64,000 nt of DNA. Source: an archaeon (GTDB lineage Archaea > Nanobdellota > Nanobdellia > Pacearchaeales > UBA284). Position numbers and translations under genes: made by a program. Below, piece by piece: positions 1 to 55,672 of the stretch. The DNA lies in contig CP070794.1 of the NCBI GenBank assembly GCA_020343435.1, positions 397,209 to 461,208 of the forward strand. Reading direction: 5' to 3'. Each line of letters opens with the position of its first letter. The stretch's first letter is position 1. The notes under the pieces are model-generated. The model did not search any database. It saw nothing but the letters and a program-made list of their open reading frames with translations, and had not been told where the DNA came from.

Positions 1-843
1 TGCAAGAACAAGGAATTAAGATTCTTGCTTTAAATTTTAAGTTTCCATTTGGATCAAGTTGTTGTGACACTAATTGTTCATTTAACTTTTGCCAAGTTCA
101 AGGAATTAAGTTAAAAGTTATTGATTGTACAAAAGGAAAACTCTTTCAAGAGTATCTTAATCTTGTTAAAAAACCAAAACATGGAACAGGTACTGCAATA
201 AATCCATGTATTGATTGTAGAATCTTTATTTTAAAAAAAGCTAAAGAGATAATGAAAAAAGAATGTTATGATTTTATTGTTACTGGAGAAGTTTTAGGAG
301 AAAGGCCAATGTCTCAATATAGAAAAGCTTTAGATTTAGTTGAAAAAGAATCTGGATTAAAAGGAAAAATTCTAAGACCTTTATCTGCTAAAAGATTAGA
401 AGAAACTGAACCTGAAAAAAAAAGGATTAGTTAATAGAGAAGAACTATACTCTATTCAAGGAAGATCAAGAAAAAAACAAATTGAATTAGCTAAAAAATT
501 TGATATTGATTATCCAACTCCTGCTGGAGGATGTTTACTGTGTGAAAAGATATTTGCAGAAAGATTAAAAGACTTATTCAAGAGACAAAAGAAAGTTGAA
601 CCAAGAGATATTGAATTACTAAGAACTGGGAGACATTTCTTGTTCAAAAATTATAAAATAATTGTTGGGAGAAATCATGTTGAAAATCTAATGATTCAAA
701 AACTAAAAAGAAAAGATAAGTTGTTTGAATTAAAAGACAAACCAGGACCTTCTGTTTTATTACAAGGAACTGGTGGAGAAAAGAAAGCTGAAGAATTGCT
801 ATTAAGATATTCTAAACATAAAGATAATATTGTTAAGAAATAG
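1..843 (+). CDS. PP-loop ATPase / tRNA sulfurtransferase-like enzyme (ThiI/MnmA superfamily). The 5' end lies outside the window and the frame is broken by a +1 shift in an A9 run.
   Basis: The frame is open from the window edge (codons phased on nt 3) to the stop at 432-434. It then continues without stops in the next frame from 424 to the stop at 841-843. Motifs NPCIDCRIF, IVTGEVLGERPMSQ, ILRPL and GGCLLCE resemble PP-loop thiolation enzymes. Confidence 0.55.
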
Positions 844-1339
844 TAAGTATTATAAACTTCAAAATAATCTAAAAAGAATGAGAAATCGGGGTGTGGGTTT
901 AATACTCATAATTCTTGGAATTGTGATAGCATTTATCTTAATATCATTTACAGCACAATTACAAGAACAGAGTCTAAATCAATGTATTTGTACACAGGAA
1001 GGAGGAACATGTGCTCATCAACAAGGATTACCATGGCAATCTTTCATAGGGTTTTTATTTGTGATTATTCTGATAATTTTTGGTATATATATATTTAGAA
1101 AGAAAGAAATTAAAGAGAAAAGGAAAATAACTAAAAAAGATCTTGGATTGTTAGATAAAGATGAAAAGAAGATCTATAAATTGATAACAGACGCTGATGG
1201 AACAATATTTCAATCAGAGTTAGTTGATAAATCTGGATTTGCTAAAGTTAAAGTTACAAGAATTCTAGATAAGTTAGAAGGTAAGAATATAGTGACTAGG
1301 AGAAGAAGAGGGATGACTAATGTAGTAATTTTGAATTGA
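830..1339 (+). CDS. Membrane-anchored winged-helix transcription regulator with a Cys-containing outer loop
   Basis: 169-aa ORF with two hydrophobic helices flanking the loop NQCICTQEGGTCAHQQG. The C-terminal part (ELVDKSGFAKVKVTRILDKLEGKNIV) looks like a MarR/TrmB-type wHTH. The alternative start MRNRG at 878 is possible. Confidence 0.6.
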   Translation: MLRNSKYYKLQNNLKRMRNRGVGLILIILGIVIAFILISFTAQLQEQSLNQCICTQEGGTCAHQQGLPWQSFIGFLFVIILIIFGIYIFRKKEIKEKRKITKKDLGLLDKDEKKIYKLITDADGTIFQSELVDKSGFAKVKVTRILDKLEGKNIVTRRRRGMTNVVILN

Positions 1340-1413
1340 AACTAGTTTCAAACAATGGCTTATAAGCTGTTTCTTTTTAGGTATTTTGTAAAATAAACTA
1401 GTGGAGGTGGTTT

Positions 1414-1710
1414 ATGAACAAAATATGGTTGGTGACATTGATTGTCGTGGTTGTTGGAGGAACTTTGTTTGGTTTGACAACATTTGTAAATGCTGGCGAT
1501 GGGCAAGCAGCATTTGAATGCGAAGATTGTGGAAACCAGTGTACTGCTAAAAACAATTGTGGTTTGGAAAGTTGCGGTGCCTTAAATGGCGGATCCTGTA
1601 ACTGCAATGCTGAATCAGATTGTGGAGGTGGTTGTACACAAGGTAACACATGTGGAGCATCTAGTTGTCAAGCACAACAAGGGAGAACCTGTGGTTGCGG
1701 GGCTAGATAG
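1414..1710 (+). CDS. Secreted Cys/Gly-rich protein made of two tandem 27-aa 6-Cys modules
   Basis: Strong SD GGAGGTG (1403-1409) lies upstream of the ATG. There is an N-terminal hydrophobic signal ending VNA|GDG. The mature part has 13 Cys, and the spacing C-x3-C-x5-C-x4-C-x7-C-x-C occurs twice (aa 38-64 and 69-95). Confidence 0.7.
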   Translation: MNKIWLVTLIVVVVGGTLFGLTTFVNAGDGQAAFECEDCGNQCTAKNNCGLESCGALNGGSCNCNAESDCGGGCTQGNTCGASSCQAQQGRTCGCGAR

Positions 1711-1717
1711 TGATGAA

Positions 1718-1738
1718 AGGGGGCTTTTGCCTCCTTTT
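1718..1738 (+). terminator. Hairpin plus T-run downstream of the Cys-rich gene
   Basis: AGGGGGC-TTTT-GCCTCCT (one G:U pair) followed by TTT, starting 8 nt after the stop codon. Confidence 0.35.
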
Positions 1739-1782
1739 AATCTCTCCGTAAGAATTATAAACCAAAAAAAACAAAATATAAA

Positions 1783-2181
1783 ATGAAGAAAGTTGGGTTT
1801 GTCTTGATTTTAGCAGTTATCTGTTTAGCTGTTGTTTTAAATGGATGTGGTAATGGGAATAATGAATTATTGATTATCAGGGATCAGATGGATATTCCTG
1901 CTGATAAGTGTTCTTTGATGGATGATTATCTGATTATTTATGAAACTGGGTGTCTACATTGTGAAAAAGTATTACCAAGATTGGCCCAAGTAGAAGATGA
2001 GCTTGGAATGGAGTTTGTAGAGTATAATTTAGCTATTGAAGCAGATTACAATAAAGTAACTCAAGATTGGGAAGTATTACCACAAGGGGTTCCTGCTGTG
2101 ATTATTGGCTGTAAAGCTTATTTAGGATCTGGATACTCTGTTGAAGACTTCAAACAAGCTGTTCAAGCCACTAGTTCTTAA
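1783..2181 (+). CDS. Extracytoplasmic thioredoxin-fold lipoprotein (CxxC)
   Basis: Signal with lipobox-like LNGC, redox motif GCLHCEKV after a beta-strand (LIIYE), and a cis-Pro-like GVPAVII. Confidence 0.65.
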   Translation: MKKVGFVLILAVICLAVVLNGCGNGNNELLIIRDQMDIPADKCSLMDDYLIIYETGCLHCEKVLPRLAQVEDELGMEFVEYNLAIEADYNKVTQDWEVLPQGVPAVIIGCKAYLGSGYSVEDFKQAVQATSS

Positions 2182-2204
2182 AACGAAAGGTTTATATATT
2201 ATAA

Positions 2205-2255
2205 TGAATATATATTCATATTAAAGAACTAAGATAGTTTATGAATATATATTCA
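2205..2255. promoter_or_regulatory. Twin operator-like palindromes in the DUF134 gene promoter/leader
   Basis: The perfect 14-bp palindrome TGAATATATATTCA occurs at 2205-2218 and again at 2242-2255, 37 bp centre to centre. A TATA-like TTTATATA lies at 2191-2198 and the ATG is at 2258. Confidence 0.5.
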
Positions 2256-2257
2256 AA

Positions 2258-2575
2258 ATGAGGTCAAAGAAAACAAGGAAAATAGAGTGGAAGCCAGGAT
2301 GGAGATATTTCACTCCTGTAGATGATAAGATGATGGAAGTAGAAGAAATTAGCTTAACTCATGATGAAATAGAAGCAATAAGATTAAAGGATTTGCAGAA
2401 TGAGGATCAAAGATTGGCTGCTGAGAAGATGAATGTCTCACAGCCCACATTTTCAAGATTAGTTAAAGATGCTAGAAGGAAGATTGCAGGCGCTCTTGTC
2501 AAAGGAGATATCATTAAAGTCCAAGGAGGCTCATTTGAAGTAGTTAAAAAAAGTTTAAAAAATAAAAAACAGTGA
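2258..2575 (+). CDS. DUF134 (UPF0251) family DNA-binding protein
   Basis: Family-typical layout: the segment EEISLTHDEIEAIRLKDL followed by the sigma-70 region-4-like HTH AAEKMNVSQPTFSRLVKDARRKIAGALVKG. Confidence 0.85.
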   Translation: MRSKKTRKIEWKPGWRYFTPVDDKMMEVEEISLTHDEIEAIRLKDLQNEDQRLAAEKMNVSQPTFSRLVKDARRKIAGALVKGDIIKVQGGSFEVVKKSLKNKKQ

Positions 2576-2586
2576 TATAATAAAAG

Positions 2587-3285
2587 ATGGTTTTCAATAT
2601 ATTATCATTAATAGGATTAGCATTGGCAGATGCAGTTAATCCATGTGAACTAGCTGTTCTTACTTTAGCTTTGATAGCTATTTTAACAAGATATCCTAGG
2701 GATAGAAAAATGGTTCTTAAAGTTGGACTGATGTTTACTTTAGCTATATTTTTGATGTATATTGTTTATGGAATTGTTTTAATTAATGTTTTTGGTTTAG
2801 CTGCAGGAATTAAATCAATAGGTCCAATTTTGTATAAGATATTTGGAGCTATTGGAATTGTTTTAGGATTATCTAATATCAAGGATTTCTTTTCTTATGG
2901 AGCAGGAGGATTTGTAATGGAAATGCCAAGAAGATGGCGTCCATCTTTAAAAGGATTAATTGTTAAGATTACTTCCCCATGGGGAGCATTTGTTGTTGGA
3001 ATAATTTGTGCTGTATTTTTAACACCATGTACTATGGGTCCTTATATTGTAGCATCAGGAATATTACAACCACTAGGATTTATTAGAGCATTACCATTAT
3101 TGATAATGTATAATATCATATTTGTTTTACCAATGATTGTGATTACATTATTGATTTACTGGGGTTTCACAAGTGTAGATAAAGTATCTGGTTGGAGAGC
3201 AAAGAATTTGAGATTAATGCATCTAATTGCAGGTATCTTGTTATTAGTTATAGGATTAGCATTAATATTTGGATGGTTAATCTAA
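2587..3285 (+). CDS. ccdA: CcdA/DsbD-family transmembrane thiol:disulfide electron transporter
   Basis: Polytopic membrane protein with the two conserved membrane Cys motifs (ADAVNPCELAV and FLTPCTMGPY). Confidence 0.8.
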   Translation: MVFNILSLIGLALADAVNPCELAVLTLALIAILTRYPRDRKMVLKVGLMFTLAIFLMYIVYGIVLINVFGLAAGIKSIGPILYKIFGAIGIVLGLSNIKDFFSYGAGGFVMEMPRRWRPSLKGLIVKITSPWGAFVVGIICAVFLTPCTMGPYIVASGILQPLGFIRALPLLIMYNIIFVLPMIVITLLIYWGFTSVDKVSGWRAKNLRLMHLIAGILLLVIGLALIFGWLI

Positions 3286-4187
3286 ATATAAGAATATTTT
3301 TTTGGCAGAATTCTTTTTCCATACATCAACATCCCCTTAATATCAAACTCATTAAACAAAGAGTAAGAAACAACTGGAGCAATACAACCACAAGTTGAAC
3401 AATCCATACCAGGGCCCATAACACAAGGGATTTTAGTCTCTCCTTCTGGATCAAAACTTAAGAATTTAGAAGGTTGCATGAAAAAACATTTTTTATAGAA
3501 CCTTTTATCCTTGAAAATACTTATTATGTTTGGAGTTAACAAAACAACATCCTTATCTTTTTTAAGAACCTCTCTTAACTTATTAATGGTCCAGTCTAAT
3601 TTTTTTCCTTCTAAATATAAAGGATCTTTAGGTCCTTTAGGTTTTACATATGTGCTAAAAGTGATTCCATCAACATCAGCTTCTCTTGTTATTTTAATCA
3701 TATCATCAATATATTTGTAATTGGCAGTTGAAAGAGTTGGTGTTATGATTACTCTCTTATCTCCTTTAATATTTTTCATGATTTTATCAAAACATTTTGC
3801 TCCTCTGATCTTCTCATGTATTTTTTTAGGTCCATCTACACTAACAAAAATTCTACATTGTACTTCTTCAGGAATTTTTCTTGTACCATTTGTAACAATA
3901 GTGATTGTTTTGAACATTTTGTAAGCTTTTTTAATTAAATTCATTCTTAAGGTTGGTTCTCCACCTGTTAAATGAGCTGAAAGTGCTCCTTTTTTGATGT
4001 GTTTTCTCCAAAGAGAAATCCATTGTTTATCTGTCAATTCTCTACTCTCTCTAGGATAAGTTTCCCTATAGCAATGATGGCATCTTAGATTACATTTGTT
4101 AGTAATTTCATAATTAATATCTGGAGGAAAATCTTTAGGACGAGTTATCTCTCTCCACATTAATCTGAATAATCTTATTAATTGCAT
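3282..4187 (-). CDS. Radical SAM protein with a C-terminal Cys cluster
   Basis: CNLRCHHCY (CxxxCxxC) near the N-terminus, a GGEP SAM-binding motif, and C-terminal CVMGPGMDCSTCGC. Confidence 0.8.
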   Translation of the reverse strand: MQLIRLFRLMWREITRPKDFPPDINYEITNKCNLRCHHCYRETYPRESRELTDKQWISLWRKHIKKGALSAHLTGGEPTLRMNLIKKAYKMFKTITIVTNGTRKIPEEVQCRIFVSVDGPKKIHEKIRGAKCFDKIMKNIKGDKRVIITPTLSTANYKYIDDMIKITREADVDGITFSTYVKPKGPKDPLYLEGKKLDWTINKLREVLKKDKDVVLLTPNIISIFKDKRFYKKCFFMQPSKFLSFDPEGETKIPCVMGPGMDCSTCGCIAPVVSYSLFNEFDIKGMLMYGKRILPKKYSYI

Positions 4188-4225: not shown

Positions 4226-5749
4226 TTACCTTTCCAAAAGGTCTCTTACTTCTAAAATTCTATTAAGAGTATAGTCTTCTGAGTGGCTCTCCTCCTCAAC
4301 CATGTTAGCAATTGTTCTGTTGGTCCCCCTCTCAGAAGAGTCTTCGCTATAAAGCCTGTCTACATGTTCTCCCTGGTTTGGAACTAACTCATCTTTTCTT
4401 GCTGTTATAATTCCAACTTTTTCTGTTCTTATTTTTGAAGGATCTACTTCAGGCATATCTATCATAAGTCTAAGAGTTGTTGTTAAAGCATCTCCAGTAG
4501 CATCTATCCATCCAGCAGCAGCTTGTTCAGCCAGATTATCTAATCTTCCACCCCATCCACGTCTAGCATAATGAATTCCAATGTCATCATCTCCTTGCAT
4601 AACATGTCTTGCAATATTATAGAAAACATTTTCTCCTTTCTTTGCTCTGTTTTTTAACATTCTAAAAAGAGTTGATGCTGATCTGAGAACTAATTCTGGC
4701 ATTGAAATGCTTTTTTCTCTTCCTGTAAAGTTCTTTTCAACAAGATATTTTGTTGTTTTAAAACCAAGGTTAGCATACTGTTTAAATAAATCTAATACAG
4801 ATTTTCCAAGTCTAACTTCTCTTCCTCCAAATTTTCTTCCTAATAAAGGAAATGTTATTTCTCCAACATAAGATTTAGAACCTGTTCTGTCTAAAATTAA
4901 GGAATCTAAATCATAAGTTCCTTTTTGTGCCCACATTTGTGCTAGAGCTCCCCCAAATGAATAACCTGCTACTATTGGGGGTTTTATTAAATCATCTTTA
5001 AAATGAGAGATTACTTCATCAGCAGAATCAGCAACATAATCCCAATCAGGAGAAGGAATTGCTGCAGCATTTGGATGAAGAGGAAGTTTTGATGGATCAT
5101 TTTTGAGATTTTTTGAGGATTGGTATAATAATCTTCCCACCAACCCACCAACAAGGGCTTTAATTCCTTTTTTTCCTTGAACAGGTCTTGAATTTGCTAA
5201 AAGATGATGTAGTGCTGTTTGTGCAACTTTAAGTGCTGGTGCTGGAGACTTTCTAGATGCTCTATAAAGTCTTTCTTGTTCTCTTAGTTGCTCTCTGTAT
5301 TCTGGTTTTTCCCTTAAAGGATCTAAATTTAATCTGTTATAATTAACAACAAGCATATTATTTCCTTCATTCAAAACTTTTGGGATTTCTGGTAATAAAA
5401 AAGACTCATTACTAACCCATGGAAGAAAATAAATCATAGTTCTAGTATCTGAGGTCTGGTGTGGAGATCTGAACATCATACCATGCATCTGGTTTGGTAA
5501 AGAAAATGCTTCATAACGTCCAGAAGGAGATCTATACTCTAAGGTTCCTTTTGGGGCTTTGCTTGTTCTTGGTTCTGGAACTGCTGGTTTCAAAACCTTG
5601 CCATCCTCAGAAATCTCATAATGTGGAAGCCTGAATCCTCTAGTAGAGATTCTATCTAAATCTTTGTCTACTTCTTCAGGAGTTATTTTCCTCTCAAAAG
5701 GATTCACTAACCCCCATAAAAATTTTGAAACTTCTTTCCCTGTTCCCAT
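4226..5749 (-). CDS. Orphan protein with an alpha/beta-hydrolase-like nucleophile elbow
   Basis: 507-aa ORF with GxSxG (AGYSFGGALAQ). Later candidate Asp (RKDELVP) and His (EESHSEDY). No signal peptide. G+C is visibly higher than in neighbouring genes. Confidence 0.45.
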   Translation of the reverse strand: MGTGKEVSKFLWGLVNPFERKITPEEVDKDLDRISTRGFRLPHYEISEDGKVLKPAVPEPRTSKAPKGTLEYRSPSGRYEAFSLPNQMHGMMFRSPHQTSDTRTMIYFLPWVSNESFLLPEIPKVLNEGNNMLVVNYNRLNLDPLREKPEYREQLREQERLYRASRKSPAPALKVAQTALHHLLANSRPVQGKKGIKALVGGLVGRLLYQSSKNLKNDPSKLPLHPNAAAIPSPDWDYVADSADEVISHFKDDLIKPPIVAGYSFGGALAQMWAQKGTYDLDSLILDRTGSKSYVGEITFPLLGRKFGGREVRLGKSVLDLFKQYANLGFKTTKYLVEKNFTGREKSISMPELVLRSASTLFRMLKNRAKKGENVFYNIARHVMQGDDDIGIHYARRGWGGRLDNLAEQAAAGWIDATGDALTTTLRLMIDMPEVDPSKIRTEKVGIITARKDELVPNQGEHVDRLYSEDSSERGTNRTIANMVEEESHSEDYTLNRILEVRDLLER

Positions 5750-5847: not shown

Positions 5848-7377
5848 ATGAAAAAGAGGTTTATTAAAGATAGACTTAATCATCAATGTTCTATTGGAAA
5901 ACAAGGCAAATGCTGTAAGAACTGTTTATTAGGACCATGTATTGTTCTAAATCGCCAAGATAAAGGTGCTTGCGGAGCTTCGCAAGATTTAGTTGTTTCA
6001 AGGAATATTTTAAGATTTACAGCAGGAGGAGCATCAGCTCATTGTGGTCATGCTTATCATACATTAAAGTATTTGAAAAAAGATTATCCTTTTGATTATA
6101 TTAAGAAAAAAGCTCCAAGTTATTTGTATAACTTATGGAAAAAACATGGATTCTTACCAAAAGCAAAACTAGAACATTTCAAAGATATTTCAGAAGCTCT
6201 ACATACAACAACAATGGGAACAAATGCAGATTATAAAGATGTAATAAAATGGTGTTTAAGATTAGGAATTTTAGATGGATATTATGGATTGTATTTAGCA
6301 ACAGAATTAGAAGACCAGGTTTTTGGAAAACCTGAAGTCAGGGTTGGAGAATTAAATCTTGGAGTTATCCAACCAAATAAAATAAATATAGCTGTTCATG
6401 GACATGAACCTATTTTAGCTGAAGCATTAATTAAAGAAGTAAGAAAAAAAGAGAATTTAGATATCAATTTAATTGGAGTTTGCTGCACAGGACAAGCTGT
6501 TTTAGCAAGACACGGGATTCCAATGGCTGCTAATTTTCTTTTACAAGAAAATGTGATTGCAACTGGAATGATTGAGGCAATGGTTGTTGATGTTCAGTGT
6601 ATTATGCCAAGTATCTCTGATTTAGCTGAATGCTATCATACAAAGATCATTACAACAAATGAATTATGTAAAATGCCTAATGCTGTTCATATGCCTATAA
6701 CAAATAAAAAAGAAGCTGAAGAAGTTGCTCATAAAATAATTAGTATGGCAAGAACAATGGGAAGGCATAGACTAAAAAATAAAAGGATTAGAGAAAATAA
6801 AAAAGTTGCTGTTGTTGGGTTTCATGAAAGAAATCTTCCTTATTCTCCAAAAGAGATTGCAGATAAGATTAGAAAAGCTCAATTAAAAGGAGTAATTGCT
6901 GTTGTTGGATGTGATAATATCAGAGTTAAAGAGGATTGGGTTAAGTTATATAAAGAATTAAGTAAAGATTATTTATTTTTAACTACTGGTTGTATTGGTT
7001 TTAAACTTGCTAATGCAGGATTATTAGATGGAAAGAATTTCTATCATCTTGGATCTTGTGTAAACAATGCAAGAATTGCTGAAGTCTTTAGATTAATTGC
7101 TAAAGCTGCTAAAAAACAGATTCATGACATGCCTTTTTTAATTTCTTGTCCACAACCCATATCTGAAAAAGCTATTTCAATAGGAATGTTTTTTGCTGCT
7201 TTGGGAGTTGATGTTCATTTTGGTTATAACTTCTTATTATCAAGTGATATGCATATTGCAAAATATTTAGAAGAGGCTTTGAAAAAGACTTTCAAAAGCA
7301 AAGTATTCTTAGAGATGAAACCTAAACAATTTAAAAGAAGATTGCAAAAAGAAGGATTATCCACAATATATAAATAA
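5848..7377 (+). CDS. Compact CooS-like protein (Ni-CODH/prismane family)
   Basis: N-terminal CSIGKQGKCCKNCLLGPC and GACGASQDLVVSRNILRFTAGGASAHCGH. Also AVHGHEP, GVCCTGQ, DVQCIMPS, VVGCDN and LGSCVNNARI, in the same order as CooS cluster-ligand motifs. Only 509 aa. Confidence 0.7.
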   Translation: MKKRFIKDRLNHQCSIGKQGKCCKNCLLGPCIVLNRQDKGACGASQDLVVSRNILRFTAGGASAHCGHAYHTLKYLKKDYPFDYIKKKAPSYLYNLWKKHGFLPKAKLEHFKDISEALHTTTMGTNADYKDVIKWCLRLGILDGYYGLYLATELEDQVFGKPEVRVGELNLGVIQPNKINIAVHGHEPILAEALIKEVRKKENLDINLIGVCCTGQAVLARHGIPMAANFLLQENVIATGMIEAMVVDVQCIMPSISDLAECYHTKIITTNELCKMPNAVHMPITNKKEAEEVAHKIISMARTMGRHRLKNKRIRENKKVAVVGFHERNLPYSPKEIADKIRKAQLKGVIAVVGCDNIRVKEDWVKLYKELSKDYLFLTTGCIGFKLANAGLLDGKNFYHLGSCVNNARIAEVFRLIAKAAKKQIHDMPFLISCPQPISEKAISIGMFFAALGVDVHFGYNFLLSSDMHIAKYLEEALKKTFKSKVFLEMKPKQFKRRLQKEGLSTIYK

Positions 7378-7943: not shown

Positions 7944-8819
7944 ATGATATATGATGTAATTATTATTGGTAGTGGGGCTGCAGCACTAACTGCTGCTATT
8001 TATTCTGTAAGATACAAATTAAATACTTTAGTCATTGGAAAAGAAATTGGCGGAAAGATGATCTGGACACCAACTATTGAAAATTATCCTGGATTTGGTA
8101 AAATAAGTGGTATCGAACTTTCAAAAAAAATGGAAGATCAAGTAAAAAAATTAGGTGTTAAAGTTTTGAAAGAAGAAGTTAAAATGCTTTGCAGAGAAAA
8201 AGAATTATTGATTATAAAAACTGAAAAACAAAGATATGAAGCAAAATCTGTTATAGTTGCTTGGGGAACTCAAAAAAGAAAATTGGATGTTGAGAATGAA
8301 GATAAGTATATAGGTAAAGGAATTGCATATTGTGCAACTTGTGATGCTCCCTTATTTAGAAATAAAGATGTAGTGGTTGTTGGTGGTGGAAATTCTGCAG
8401 CTATAGCAGTAGATCTCTTAAAAAAGTATGCTAAAAAAATTTACATGGTTTACCTAGATCTTTTTATGGATCCTTCTGAACTTGAAAAGATAAAAAAAGA
8501 TGTTGAAATAATTCAGGGAACTATTAAAAAAATAGGTGGGGATAAGTTTGTAAAATCTGTTACTTTGAATTCTGGAAGAAAATTAGATGTTCAAGGAATT
8601 TTTGTTGAAATTGGAGATCTTCCTAATGAAATTCCTTGTGAGAAGATTAAGATTAAAACAAATAAACAAGGATATATTTTAACTGATCAAAATATGAAAA
8701 CTTCTGTTAACGGAATTTTTGCAATAGGAGATTGCATTTCCAAACCTTTGAAACAAATTGTGACTGCTGCAAGTGATGGCGCAACAGCAGCTCATTCTGC
8801 TTACAAATTCTTGAAATAG
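7944..8819 (+). CDS. trxB: Thioredoxin-reductase-like flavoprotein (low-Mr TrxR fold)
   Basis: FAD motif IIIGSGAAALTAAIY, redox CATC (AYCATCDAPLF), second dinucleotide motif VVGGGNSA, and GDC near the C-terminus. The HRRxxxR NADPH motif is absent (YLDLFMD in its place). Confidence 0.8.
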   Translation: MIYDVIIIGSGAAALTAAIYSVRYKLNTLVIGKEIGGKMIWTPTIENYPGFGKISGIELSKKMEDQVKKLGVKVLKEEVKMLCREKELLIIKTEKQRYEAKSVIVAWGTQKRKLDVENEDKYIGKGIAYCATCDAPLFRNKDVVVVGGGNSAAIAVDLLKKYAKKIYMVYLDLFMDPSELEKIKKDVEIIQGTIKKIGGDKFVKSVTLNSGRKLDVQGIFVEIGDLPNEIPCEKIKIKTNKQGYILTDQNMKTSVNGIFAIGDCISKPLKQIVTAASDGATAAHSAYKFLK

Positions 8820-18522: not shown

Positions 18523-18645
18523 TCCCAGCGGCCGGACTCGAACCGGCATCCTCACGGGTTCTGCCGCGCGTAAGCGAACGCATGCTCGAGCCTTACGCAT
18601 AAGCATAGGCTACAGCCGTGCGCTCCACCGTTGAGCTACACTGGG
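18523..18645 (-). tRNA. tRNA-Tyr (GTA) with a 51-nt intron at the canonical 37/38 position
   Basis: Reverse complement: acceptor CCCAGTG/CGCTGGG with C1:G72, anticodon stem CACGG/CCGTG, loop CTGTAG|intron|C, T arm GCCGG-TTCGAGT-CCGGC. Confidence 0.85.
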
Positions 18646-44259: not shown

Positions 44260-45618
44260 ATGAGCAAGGCACTAGTTACAGAGATTTTAGACAGGTTGGG
44301 GATCAAAGAAAGGAGGATCAGAGTTTTCACATCAAGTGATGTTGCAATGGCTATCACAGGAGGGAGAATTGATCCCAGTGACAAAAATGCGCTTAGAGAA
44401 TTTGCTAGGGATGTTGCAATAAAACATGGAGCAAGAATCCCTAAATTGGGAGACATAGACTCTGAAGGAGGAGGTGATGATGGAGGATATGAAATGTTTG
44501 GAAAAACTGGAAAGTATGGTCATCTAAGAACAAAGAAAGATTTTGCAAGAGCTATCCAAGAAACAGATGCTACAAAACCTTCTGAATTGGAAAATGCGTT
44601 GTATCAAGCAGCCTATGCAAAAGTTATTAAAACAAAAGAAGCAACATGGGAAGATCTTTTTGGAGGAAAATACTCTCCTGGGAGGGGGGACAGACCCCCT
44701 GAAAATGATAAAAAGAGGAGAACCACAAAAAGAAGAGGATTAGAAAGAGAAATGGGAAAAACCAGAAAATCTAGAGGAAGTCAAAAACTAGATCCTGTTG
44801 CATCTGCAGTTGAAAGATATAGAGCAGGAGGAAAGAGGAGATATATCCCTCAATCACTATATGACTCTTTCTCTGAGGAACAGCTCATAGTTTATTTAGA
44901 ATTGTTGAATTTAAGAAATTTAAGAGGATTAAAGGATCATCATAAGTCTCTACAAAGAGCTTTAGAAAGCAGGGGCATTGATCCAAAAGATTATATTGGT
45001 AGATTTAGAAAACCAAAAACAGTACTAGATGAAAAAGTTGGAAAGACAAGAAGGCCAAGGCCTACTAAAAGAAGGAAAGAAGGTATAGGTAATGTGGCAG
45101 AAGCACTAAGAGTATATAAGAGAACACATTCTCGTGTCAGCCAAGCTTTTTATGATCAATTTGATAGAGATCAATTAGGAGATTATGCTACCTCTTTAGG
45201 GATTGGAACAATAACTGAGTTTAGAACAAAGCATAGATCTCTATTAGTAAGTATGAGGAAAAAGGGTTTTAAACCAGAAGAGTATATTGGCCAACCCCAA
45301 AAACCAACAAAAACTAGGAAAAAACCAAGTAGAGGTCCTAGAAGAAAACCTTCACCAACAGAACCTGTTGAAGAATATAATTTAGATGACCAAATTGATG
45401 ATGTTTTGGCATTGAGAGCAAGAAAAGAAAGGCTTTGGGAATATGCGCAACAAGAAGATAGAGACCTAATAAAAACAGGAGTAGCAAAAGGGTATCATAA
45501 ATTAGATATGGATGGTATTGTAGAAAAAGATCCTTGGTATTATGATGTAATGTGGAAAAGAAATCTTATTGATCCTTTTGTGACAGTACTCTCAAAAGGA
45601 ACAAAGAAAAAGAAATGA
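44260..45618 (+). CDS. Orphan highly basic protein with an internal tandem repeat of about 72 aa
   Basis: 452-aa ORF. Residues ~180-253 and ~279-350 align (VA.A...Y...SQ..YD.F...QL..Y ... H.SL ... G..P..YIG...KP) and are separated by GKTR(K/R)-type basic linkers. G+C is elevated. Confidence 0.5.
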   Translation: MSKALVTEILDRLGIKERRIRVFTSSDVAMAITGGRIDPSDKNALREFARDVAIKHGARIPKLGDIDSEGGGDDGGYEMFGKTGKYGHLRTKKDFARAIQETDATKPSELENALYQAAYAKVIKTKEATWEDLFGGKYSPGRGDRPPENDKKRRTTKRRGLEREMGKTRKSRGSQKLDPVASAVERYRAGGKRRYIPQSLYDSFSEEQLIVYLELLNLRNLRGLKDHHKSLQRALESRGIDPKDYIGRFRKPKTVLDEKVGKTRRPRPTKRRKEGIGNVAEALRVYKRTHSRVSQAFYDQFDRDQLGDYATSLGIGTITEFRTKHRSLLVSMRKKGFKPEEYIGQPQKPTKTRKKPSRGPRRKPSPTEPVEEYNLDDQIDDVLALRARKERLWEYAQQEDRDLIKTGVAKGYHKLDMDGIVEKDPWYYDVMWKRNLIDPFVTVLSKGTKKKK

Positions 45619-55383: not shown

Positions 55384-55672
55384 GTAGCTAGGAAGCTGGT
55401 TGTCTGCATTAAGCAGAGGAAGGTCCGCTCACCCCTTGAAAGAGGAAGTGGCTGGTTTTCGAAAGAAAACTTGTCGTGAGGCAAAGCTCTGTCACAGAAA
55501 CGACACAGTCTCTGTGGAGATATGAAACTTGCGTTGATCTACGAAGCAGAGAATTTGATGAAACGGGCAACTCAGTCGGTGCAACTCGTGAAGAGGCTTA
55601 GTAGGATGCCAGTATGGTTGATTTGAAGCTAAAACTTCAAGAGCCAACAAAAAGTGGCCTAATCCTAGCTAC
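55384..55672 (+). ncRNA. rnpB: RNase P RNA
   Basis: A perfect 10-bp terminal helix (GTAGCTAGGA/TCCTAGCTAC). Conserved elements GAGGAAGGTCCGC (compare GAGGAAAGUCC) and CACAGAAA are present. The region is a G+C-rich island of about 290 nt. Confidence 0.85.

Follow-up and report, generated by a model that had tools for sequence, protein, structure and literature searches.

A candidate membrane-tethered regulator and operator with swappable extracytoplasmic cargo, including an exported Cys-rich mini-protein family, in DPANN archaea

DPANN archaea have very small genomes that encode few transcription factors, and experimental genetics hardly exists for them. We analysed a 64-kb stretch of the genome of a member of the Pacearchaeales (assembly GCA_020343435.1, contig CP070794.1, positions 397,209 to 461,208 of the forward strand; hereafter the window, to whose full length all coordinates refer), in which the gene of an exported Cys-rich mini-protein of 98 residues (1414-1710, + strand) follows that of a membrane-tethered winged helix-turn-helix (wHTH) regulator of 153 residues (878-1339, + strand). 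Judged by sequence, this system belongs to none of the described groups that come close to it, be it the archaeal cop clusters, the regulators of the ToxR/CadC/ArnR type or the metallothioneins.

Membrane-bound one-component transcription regulators include ToxR and CadC in bacteria and ArnR in Sulfolobus. ToxR and CadC have an N-terminal OmpR-type wHTH domain and one transmembrane (TM) helix, and ArnR carries its TM helices at the C-terminus. By analogy, a single chain in the window regulator would unite TM segments, a sensor outside the cytoplasm and a DNA-binding domain inside it, with a promoter nearby. The adjacent conserved operator-like site completes the apparent layout of a tethered one-component regulator with putative DNA binding. 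In contrast with these proteins, it has two N-terminal TM helices around a loop of ~25 residues and a C-terminal wHTH domain, and its family is confined to DPANN archaea in the data searched.

Classical metallothioneins are cytosolic. The mini-protein shares with metallothioneins and secreted copper proteins (SmtA, MymT, Csp1, PcoE/CusF types) its small size, a Cys content of ~21%, CxC and CxxC motifs and the lack of aromatic residues, and the Cys-rich genes sit behind a cassette whose other cargo binds metal. Unlike metallothioneins, to which it has no sequence relationship, it bears a Sec-type signal; its metal binding is putative, and Asn48, Gly50 and Ala56 of its family are more strongly conserved than the non-Cys positions of metallothioneins. 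ScsB/C/D and CcdA-ResA are extracytoplasmic thiol pathways tied to copper stress or cytochrome maturation. As in those pathways, a membrane protein resembling CcdA/DsbD occurs together with thioredoxin (Trx)- or DsbA-like exported proteins, and in related loci such genes adjoin or are fused with the Cys-rich module and metal transporters; in contrast, the thiol locus of the window is conserved without the module, and no cytochrome c maturation genes were seen.

In archaeal cop clusters (CopR, the CopT/CopM TRASH chaperone and the CopA ATPase), a wHTH regulator gene also lies beside metal-handling cargo. CopR of Pyrococcus furiosus is a copper activator with a (semi-)palindromic site directly upstream of the B recognition element (BRE) and TATA box (PMC7830388), and the operator-like palindrome of the window holds a similar position. 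CopR is a soluble octamer of the Lrp/AsnC type that senses copper via a cytoplasmic TRASH domain, whereas the window regulator is predicted to be membrane-tethered, with a Cys/His/Met loop outside, a DUF7343 wHTH domain, no TRASH domain and another operator sequence. Small Cys-rich cargo proteins with CxxC...CxxC in some related loci (L016, L130 and L140 in our numbering) also recall cop clusters; they look TRASH-like by eye, and the two that were scanned matched no model. A literature search on DUF7343, the operator sequence, archaeal metallothioneins and DPANN archaea in conjunction with Cys-rich, wHTH or copper found no description of such a system.

The mini-protein starts with a short basic part and ~20 hydrophobic residues ending in VNA/GD, which we read by eye as a Sec-like signal peptide (1414-1494). 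It is followed by two modules (1519-1605 with 7 Cys; 1621-1698 with 6 Cys) that have the same C-x3-C-x5-C-x4-C-x7-C-x-C spacing and 14 of 27 residues in common; the seventh Cys of module 1 lies upstream of this pattern (C-x2-C), and the protein has 13 Cys in all. The Shine-Dalgarno (SD) sequence GGAGGTG (1403-1409, + strand) is located 4 nt ahead of the ATG; of its three copies in the window only this one precedes the Cys-rich start, another lying inside the gene (1624) and the third at 44470. The G+C content over the gene is 0.43-0.47 vs 0.26-0.33 in the flanks, because of its Cys, Gly and Ala codons (TGY, GGN, GCN). An earlier note on this DNA, made from the sequence alone, had pointed out this open reading frame (ORF) for its signal peptide, its equally spaced modules, its SD sequence and its raised G+C content, and all these features were reproduced, as were the ORF coordinates of the region. 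No further copies of the six-Cys pattern were found in the window, nor in shuffles of it. Scans of the protein against Pfam (E <= 10) and NCBIfam (E <= 0.1) matched no model, among them those of the described metallothionein families, and a word-indexed protein search with the 98-residue query returned only the protein itself, labelled hypothetical in the database.

To collect homologues, 1.84 billion representatives were scanned exhaustively with HMMER, which yielded 50 matches. Six long, multi-stretch matches were rejected as spurious, being eukaryotic C2H2 zinc-finger arrays that match 'FECEDCG'. The ~44 homologous clusters comprise one-module forms of 64-72 residues and two-module forms of 92-103 residues and keep the Cys spacing, which supports a real, conserved protein of the exported type. 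In the family alignment, C43, N48, C49, C54, C62 and C64 are invariant, and C39, G50 and A56 are conserved in at least 90% of the sequences. One-module members usually harbour 7 Cys, and either of the first two (C36 or C39) may be absent. Across 43 members the Cys domain is composed of 21-22% Cys and 56-63% Gly, Ser, Thr, Asn or Ala, with 0-0.6% aromatic residues, no His or Met, and CxC and CxxC motifs, a composition typical of metallothioneins (small proteins with 15-30% Cys in CxC/CxxC and almost no aromatics).

We also searched for genomic members with a degenerate DNA pattern, in one genome per species. Approximately 36 of the 61 stretches returned are true family members; they come from Woese-, Pace-, Nano- and Aenigmatarchaeota or from unclassified metagenome-assembled genomes of low G+C content. 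Essentially all genomic members (n=36) are from DPANN archaea. Some 23 other stretches are chance matches in bacteria, mostly of high G+C content, and four matches on viral contigs, with stop codons inside or out of context, are also due to chance. Two bacterial signalling proteins (L013 5444-5509; L037 6706-6771) correspond to the 'two-CW domain' entry NF045718, and the one that was scanned carries a GGDEF domain. They share the spacing C-x5-C-x4-C-x7-C-x-C as well as NCG and CPA; these features were imposed by the pattern used for the search, and the NF045718 model is not matched by the window protein. The Cys-rich mini-proteins form a previously undescribed family without a Pfam or NCBIfam model.

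A perfect 12-bp palindrome, GAAACTAGTTTC (1338-1349), overlaps the stop codon of the regulator gene and resembles an operator. It is the only exact copy in the window and precedes by ~10 bp a TATA-like box, TTATAAG (1360-1366, + strand), which is followed by a third half-site, CTGTTTC (1367-1373). With a stem of 5 bp and a loop of 2 nt, GAAACTAGTTTC could not fold into a hairpin, and we therefore read it as a DNA site. The same order of elements (palindrome, ~10 bp, TATA-like box and (C)TGTTTC) is found before other Cys-rich genes: the palindrome is located 57-97 bp upstream of 34 of 39 such genes, with 22 exact copies, and of the five genes without it, four come second, after a gene that carries the element. 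The consensus of 91 sites is TGAAACTAGTTTCA-N9/10-tTAtAa-N2-tgttt, and the downstream half-site is present with at most 1 mismatch in 60 of them. Exact palindromes occur in 75 of the 150 loci fetched.

GGAGG precedes nearly all genes of the Cys-rich family. In the window, the ORF is followed by a terminator-like hairpin, AAAGGGGGC-UUUU-GCCUCCUUU, and a U-rich run (1714-1740, + strand; folding energy -20.2 kcal/mol, z = -2.55 vs shuffles). Because of its own promoter-like region and this hairpin, the Cys-rich gene looks self-contained, which suggests a transcription unit made of operator, TATA box, SD sequence, ORF and terminator. No Rfam element was detected in 830-4187.

The maximal ORF of the regulator begins at TTG 830, but ATG 878 is the most likely start because of the alignment with 27 homologues. 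The protein consists of a basic N-terminus, a first TM helix, an outer loop, a second TM helix, a Lys/Glu-rich linker and a C-terminal wHTH domain (about 1154-1333) that matches Pfam DUF7343 (PF24034; 6.7e-12, 45.5 bits vs a cut-off of 27.6); a MarR match (2.6e-5, 24.5 bits) is slightly under the cut-off of 24.6. Basic residues at the N-terminus and after the second TM helix would, by the positive-inside rule, place the loop outside and the wHTH domain in the cytoplasm. A PDB sequence search with the regulator gave nothing significant, and 878-1339 is the sole member of its family in the window. The loop harbours the motif C36-I-C38-x6-C45-A-H47 (983-1018, + strand), a putative sensing site. 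The earlier description of a membrane-tethered wHTH regulator stands, with the loop spacing amended to C-x-C-x6-C-x-H from the x7 proposed.

In alignments of 25-28 regulator homologues, C36, C45 and Q54 are invariant and FQ...KV..TR.LDKLE...RRRGM is conserved. Most loops conform to C-[ST]-H-G-x-x-C-x-M-[YW], with His, Met or an extra Cys near the two invariant Cys, and those of the window and of Aenigmatarchaeota regulators are of the C-x-C...C-x-[HM] type. Using phmmer with the window proteins as queries, we found the regulator gene in 27 of the 36 Cys-rich loci, mostly directly upstream and on the same strand, which substantiates a conserved link between the two genes. Same-strand genes for NifS-like, DUF1858 and IscU proteins, and sometimes for a peroxiredoxin, lie upstream of the regulator in L017, L025, L030, L035, L044, L050, L052, L055 and L064. 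Many Woese- and Pacearchaeota loci share the NifS-like/DUF1858/IscU string, and the regulator may be co-transcribed with these Fe-S assembly genes.

A metagenome scan seeded with the regulator alignment found >228 relatives, the best 80 of which were kept; genes in the fetched loci were called with a simple ORF picker. A Cys-rich gene is present in only 3-4 of the 59 regulator-seeded loci with enough downstream sequence. The palindrome occurs within 200 bp after the regulator stop codon in 35 of 77 of these loci, and 21 more copies lie elsewhere in their 270 kb, vs ~0.6 expected. What follows the regulators are mainly metal-binding and thiol-redox extracytoplasmic genes. The Pfam domains in the 76 co-directional downstream genes scanned include HMA (11), FtrD-like (5), Cupredoxin_1 (5), Rhodanese (3), Thioredoxin_2 (3), Thioredoxin_4/DSBA, ICMT and Hemerythrin (2 each), and DsbD_2, VKOR, DUF411, plastocyanin-type, glutaredoxin (Grx) and AhpC (1 each). 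By model score, the HMA domains are CopZ- or MerTP-like, and small, secreted His/Met-rich proteins are also among the cargo.

The loop subtype of the regulator co-varies with the class of cargo, and the operator sequence remains unchanged (L071-L150, L016-L070). Loops of the ...C.MY type go with the Cys-rich gene, ...CPMW with HMA membrane proteins and ...CPM[HQ] with FtrD-like, HMA and DsbA genes, and two more types are associated with a 230-residue family ending in MVGGC. The CxC type, to which the window regulator belongs, is found with the Cys-rich gene, with a fusion of DsbA and the module (L059) or with DsbA (L072).

Cys/Gly tails such as GGSCGGSSGGCGCGG terminate membrane proteins in L082, L087, L089, L111, L130, L135 and L140, most of which begin with an HMA domain and several of which carry a Cupredoxin_1 domain. 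These tails of HMA and cupredoxin cargo resemble the C-x-C-G-[GRK] end of the Cys-rich module. A C-terminus of the form ...GGC-COOH, mostly 'MVGGC', is shared by 13 of 77 cargo proteins, with genes of this kind right behind the regulator in L083, L086, L100, L114, L132, L141, L144 and L150. They belong to two unrelated families, namely secreted proteins of 220-238 residues with CEYCCGA...ACGCAHS and His/Met-rich proteins of 70-105 residues. One member of each was scanned against NCBIfam, with no match, and no model was prominent for the 230-residue family in the Pfam tally.

The stretch 878-1740 holds one copy of a regulatory cassette widespread in DPANN archaea, made of a regulator, an operator and swappable extracytoplasmic cargo. 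We propose, with a probability of roughly one half, that the cargo of the window is exported and binds metal through its many thiolates in the manner of a metallothionein, a membrane-borne sensor of metal or thiol stress inducing its gene. Of the possibilities raised in the earlier note, a metal-binding exported mini-protein is the one that the context best supports by analogy, since elsewhere the cassette drives metal-handling cargo. Consistent with this, the module occurs beside a His-rich P1B-type ATPase (L047) and a ZIP-like gene (L016) in Aenigmatarchaeota. The mechanism could be as follows. The two TM helices of the regulator would expose its short Cys/His/Met loop outside, with the DUF7343 wHTH domain staying in the cytoplasm, and a soft metal, e.g. 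Cu(I), or metal-linked thiol oxidation would be sensed at the loop. This would alter the occupancy, by the tethered wHTH dimer, of the operator GAAACTAGTTTC, which adjoins the BRE/TATA region of the following gene on its upstream side and has a further GTTTC half-site right after the TATA box; that third half-site could equally be compatible with repression. The strongly translated Cys-rich protein would then be made and exported as a 71-residue mature protein with two Cys/Gly/Ser/Asn-rich modules, whose thiolates may bind or buffer metal outside the membrane. The adjacent housekeeping route of TrxB, CcdA-like protein and Trx-like lipoprotein could keep its thiols reduced without being dedicated to it. 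The composite proposal, that of an undescribed DPANN envelope-stress regulon with a tethered wHTH sensor, the operator TGAAACTAGTTTCA-TATA-GTTTC and interchangeable cargo that includes a secreted metallothionein-like family, is put forward tentatively.

Several observations weigh against metal binding by the mini-protein or against the regulon as proposed. The Cys-rich protein has no homology to any known metal-binding family in Pfam or NCBIfam. Its AlphaFold2 model, computed from 43 sequences as the earlier note had suggested, showed no confident fold and is uninformative (predicted local distance difference test (pLDDT) score 56, predicted template modelling score 0.21). The conserved core of the family consists of six Cys, because the first or second Cys can be absent and the second module has six, and the seventh is dispensable; together with the conserved Asn48, Gly50 and Ala56, such a core would also fit a knotted fold with three disulfides. 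The module hidden Markov model gave no significant match to the Cys/Gly tails of the cargo proteins. It is by linkage that the wHTH protein is presumed to bind the palindrome. The cargo also comprises pure redox proteins (peroxiredoxin, Grx, hemerythrin, rhodanese), and the signal could therefore be oxidative or thiol stress instead of metal. Finally, either the module pattern or the regulator was used to retrieve the loci, and our co-occurrence counts therefore do not represent an unbiased genome census.

The occurrence of the regulator-operator pair across several DPANN phyla, with cargo that can be read directly from the sequence, makes it a concrete and testable regulon, and the cassette suggests how DPANN cells may sense conditions outside their membrane. 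The operator sequence can serve as a ready probe for electrophoretic mobility shift assays and for genome-wide regulon prediction. No annotation exists for the Cys-rich, 'MVGGC' and Cys/Gly-tailed cargo proteins; should they be metal binders, inferences of metal tolerance and metal scavenging from groundwater and sediment DPANN genomes would change. If our proposal is correct, it adds to archaea an extracellular protein of the metallothionein type and a metal sensor-regulator bound to the membrane, each to our knowledge the first of its kind there.

Alternatively, the mini-protein might be a disulfide-knotted secreted protein with a structural, adhesive or antimicrobial role, or a host-interaction effector of an episymbiotic archaeon, which we regard as rather unlikely. 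DsbA-type enzymes would then oxidise the six core Cys to three disulfides, and the regulator would only time expression. The six-Cys core with its fixed spacing and dispensable seventh Cys, the conservation of Asn, Gly and Ala at turn-like positions, the strong SD sequence and signal peptide, and the presence of DsbA next door (L047) or fused to the module (L059) are all in line with such a protein. However, the regulator-operator cassette drives metal-handling proteins elsewhere, not effectors, no fold is predicted, and the C-terminus of the module recalls the flexible Cys/Gly tails found on HMA and cupredoxin proteins. In addition, the extracytoplasmic thiol pathway that adjoins the gene in the window is of the reducing (CcdA) type. 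The odd numbers of Cys residues (7 and 13) were considered as an argument against disulfides and dropped, because the family can do without the extra Cys and has six in its core.

The genes downstream of the mini-protein code for a Trx-like CxxC lipoprotein (1783-2181, + strand) with a lipobox-like LNGC, CLHC and a cis-Pro-like GVPAV, a DUF134 DNA-binding protein (2258-2575, + strand; Pfam 6.6e-22), and a membrane protein resembling CcdA/DsbD-type thiol-disulfide transporters (2587-3285, + strand), with NPC in its first and TPC in its fourth TM helix. The Trx-like protein has only weak NCBIfam matches (GlrX_YruB, 0.003; another at 0.03) and nothing useful in Pfam at E <= 10; CLHC and GVPAV are kept in its homologues, which (1e-22 to 5e-45) adjoin CcdA-like genes in relatives without the module. 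The CcdA-like protein has no Pfam match even at E <= 10 and a weak NCBIfam ArsG match (3.4e-6). It has 374 homologues, mostly from Pacearchaeota, many of which match PF13386 (DsbD_2) or PF11139 (SfLAP), bear the name CcdA at JGI and are often fusions with Grx or Trx domains; homologues of this kind are 50-70% identical to it. PDB sequence searches with both proteins gave nothing significant. The labels first given to these two genes rest on weak NCBIfam matches and on homologues, neither protein having a significant Pfam match of its own.

Three relatives with 64-71% identical CcdA-like proteins have in common a locus with, in this order, a ThiI-type PP-loop gene, Grx (in two), the Trx-like gene, DUF134 (in L151, adjoining the CcdA-like gene) and the CcdA-like gene. 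Prismane is near the latter, encoding 513 residues in both L151 and L152, and all three have a TrxB-type gene nearby. None of them contains the regulator, the Cys-rich gene or the palindrome. The window shares this frame, with its ThiI-type gene (1-843), Prismane (5848-7377) and TrxB (7944-8819). Among the 36 Cys-rich loci, phmmer searches with the Trx-like, DUF134 and radical S-adenosylmethionine (SAM) proteins of the window found none of them, and the CcdA-like protein only in L045. The regulator-cargo module therefore sits within a conserved housekeeping thiol locus and forms no dedicated cluster with it, since that locus is conserved in Pacearchaeota relatives without regulator, Cys-rich gene or operator. 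The DUF134 domain is confirmed, but its gene is not supported as a partner, as it was not found beside other family members. The dedicated disulfide-handling system envisaged in the earlier note has loose support: the thiol locus is conserved without the module, and the Cys-rich gene has a promoter-like region and a terminator-like hairpin of its own, yet in Aenigmatarchaeota DsbA, Trx or CcdA-type genes recur beside the module. L045 harbours a Trx::CcdA-like fusion three genes from it, L047 has the order His-rich P1B-type ATPase, DsbA, Cys-rich gene, ABC exporter, FtrD-like and Trx-like, L016 has the ZIP-like gene and an ABC exporter, and in L059 DsbA is fused to the module.

The DsbA fusion would suit a role of the mini-protein as an extracytoplasmic component of thiol-redox metabolism, acting as a sacrificial thiol buffer against oxidants or as a redox partner or shuttle of DsbA or Trx in organisms that lack quinones, the two loop Cys of the regulator being a disulfide switch for envelope oxidation. 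The invariance of both loop Cys and the presence of peroxiredoxin, Grx, Trx, DsbA, VKOR, rhodanese and hemerythrin among the cargo point in that direction, as does the location of the module next to CcdA-like, Trx-like and TrxB genes in the window. We nevertheless deem this improbable: HMA, cupredoxin, FtrD-like, DUF411 and His/Met-rich cargo is more numerous than pure redox genes, the loops hold conserved His and Met residues that a simple disulfide switch would not need, and relatives without the module keep the CcdA/Trx locus. It is even harder to credit that the mini-protein is the cognate peptide ligand of the regulator, in an autoinducer-receptor pair for signalling between cells or with a host. 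The two genes are adjacent, and both the peptide domain and the regulator loop would be extracytoplasmic according to the predicted topology, but in the regulator-seeded loci other cargo usually stands behind the same operator. The peptide cannot be the general signal of the regulator family because most regulators have no Cys-rich gene nearby.

The last gene of the region encodes an orphan radical SAM enzyme of about 300 residues (3282-4187, - strand; PF04055, 6.8e-15) with a twitch/SPASM-like C-terminal Cys cluster, of which C234, C255, C263, C266 and C268 are invariant. It converges on the other genes as the earlier note had reported, and its stop codon (TAG, complement of 3282-3284) overlaps that of the CcdA-like gene (TAA 3283-3285) by 2 nt. 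The AlphaFold2 model of the enzyme (pLDDT 93.9) is close in fold to twitch/SPASM enzymes, and the nearest folds are SkfB, BlsE, CteB, SuiB, anSME, viperin and MoaA. There is no Pfam SPASM match, and folds unrelated to ribosomally synthesized and post-translationally modified peptides (RiPPs) are also among the nearest. The radical SAM core begins at residue 26, leaving no room for an N-terminal peptide-recognition (RRE) domain. Orthologues at 50-57% identity are found in Nanoarchaeia, Spirochaetales and other genomes, with more distant ones in Asgard archaea, in unrelated neighbourhoods devoid of Cys-rich, CcdA or Trx genes.

The locus recalls SCIFF/ranthipeptide systems, which have short Cys-rich proteins, by its twitch/SPASM-like radical SAM gene within 2 kb; unlike them, it features a signal peptide, no precursor-model match, no conserved pairing and an enzyme without an RRE domain. 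That the Cys-rich protein is a RiPP precursor, modified before export by the convergent enzyme in the SCIFF/ranthipeptide manner, can be given next to no weight: beyond the proximity of the two genes, the Cys cluster and the RiPP maturases SkfB, CteB and SuiB among the nearest solved folds, which also include the non-RiPP BlsE, viperin and MoaA, the orthologues lie in unrelated contexts, only one unrelated 500-residue SPASM enzyme (L059) occurs beside other family members, the recognition domain is missing, precursor models including SCIFF (e.g. TIGR03973) are unmatched in Pfam and NCBIfam at E <= 0.1, the N-terminus is of Sec type, and the genes are convergent and three genes apart. The partnership of the two genes and a SCIFF/ranthipeptide-like maturation, both suggested earlier, accordingly lack support. 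A RiPP cluster or a dedicated disulfide cluster was an appealing reading of this region and is hereby corrected as unsupported.

Other features of the window were noted in passing. Archaeal housekeeping genes and an archaeal RNase P RNA mark it as archaeal. The ThiI/NFACT-R_2-type PP-loop gene at 1-843 is in two pieces, with 71% and 61% identity to L152 3353-4354, because its reading frame changes from 3 to 1 near 415-430, where there is an A9 run; this may be a homopolymer assembly error or a real frameshift. The Prismane/CO-dehydrogenase-like protein (5848-7377, + strand; 509 residues) scores 348 bits vs the CooS cut-off of 478 and is shorter than CooS. A 507-residue protein (4226-5749, - strand) has weak alpha/beta-hydrolase matches (E about 5e-4) and a G+C content of 0.37-0.40, above its surroundings. 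A 123-nt tRNA match at 18523-18645 (- strand), given by Rfam and not by ARAGORN, probably contains an intron, and an archaeal RNase P RNA (128 bits) is located at 55384-55672 (+ strand).

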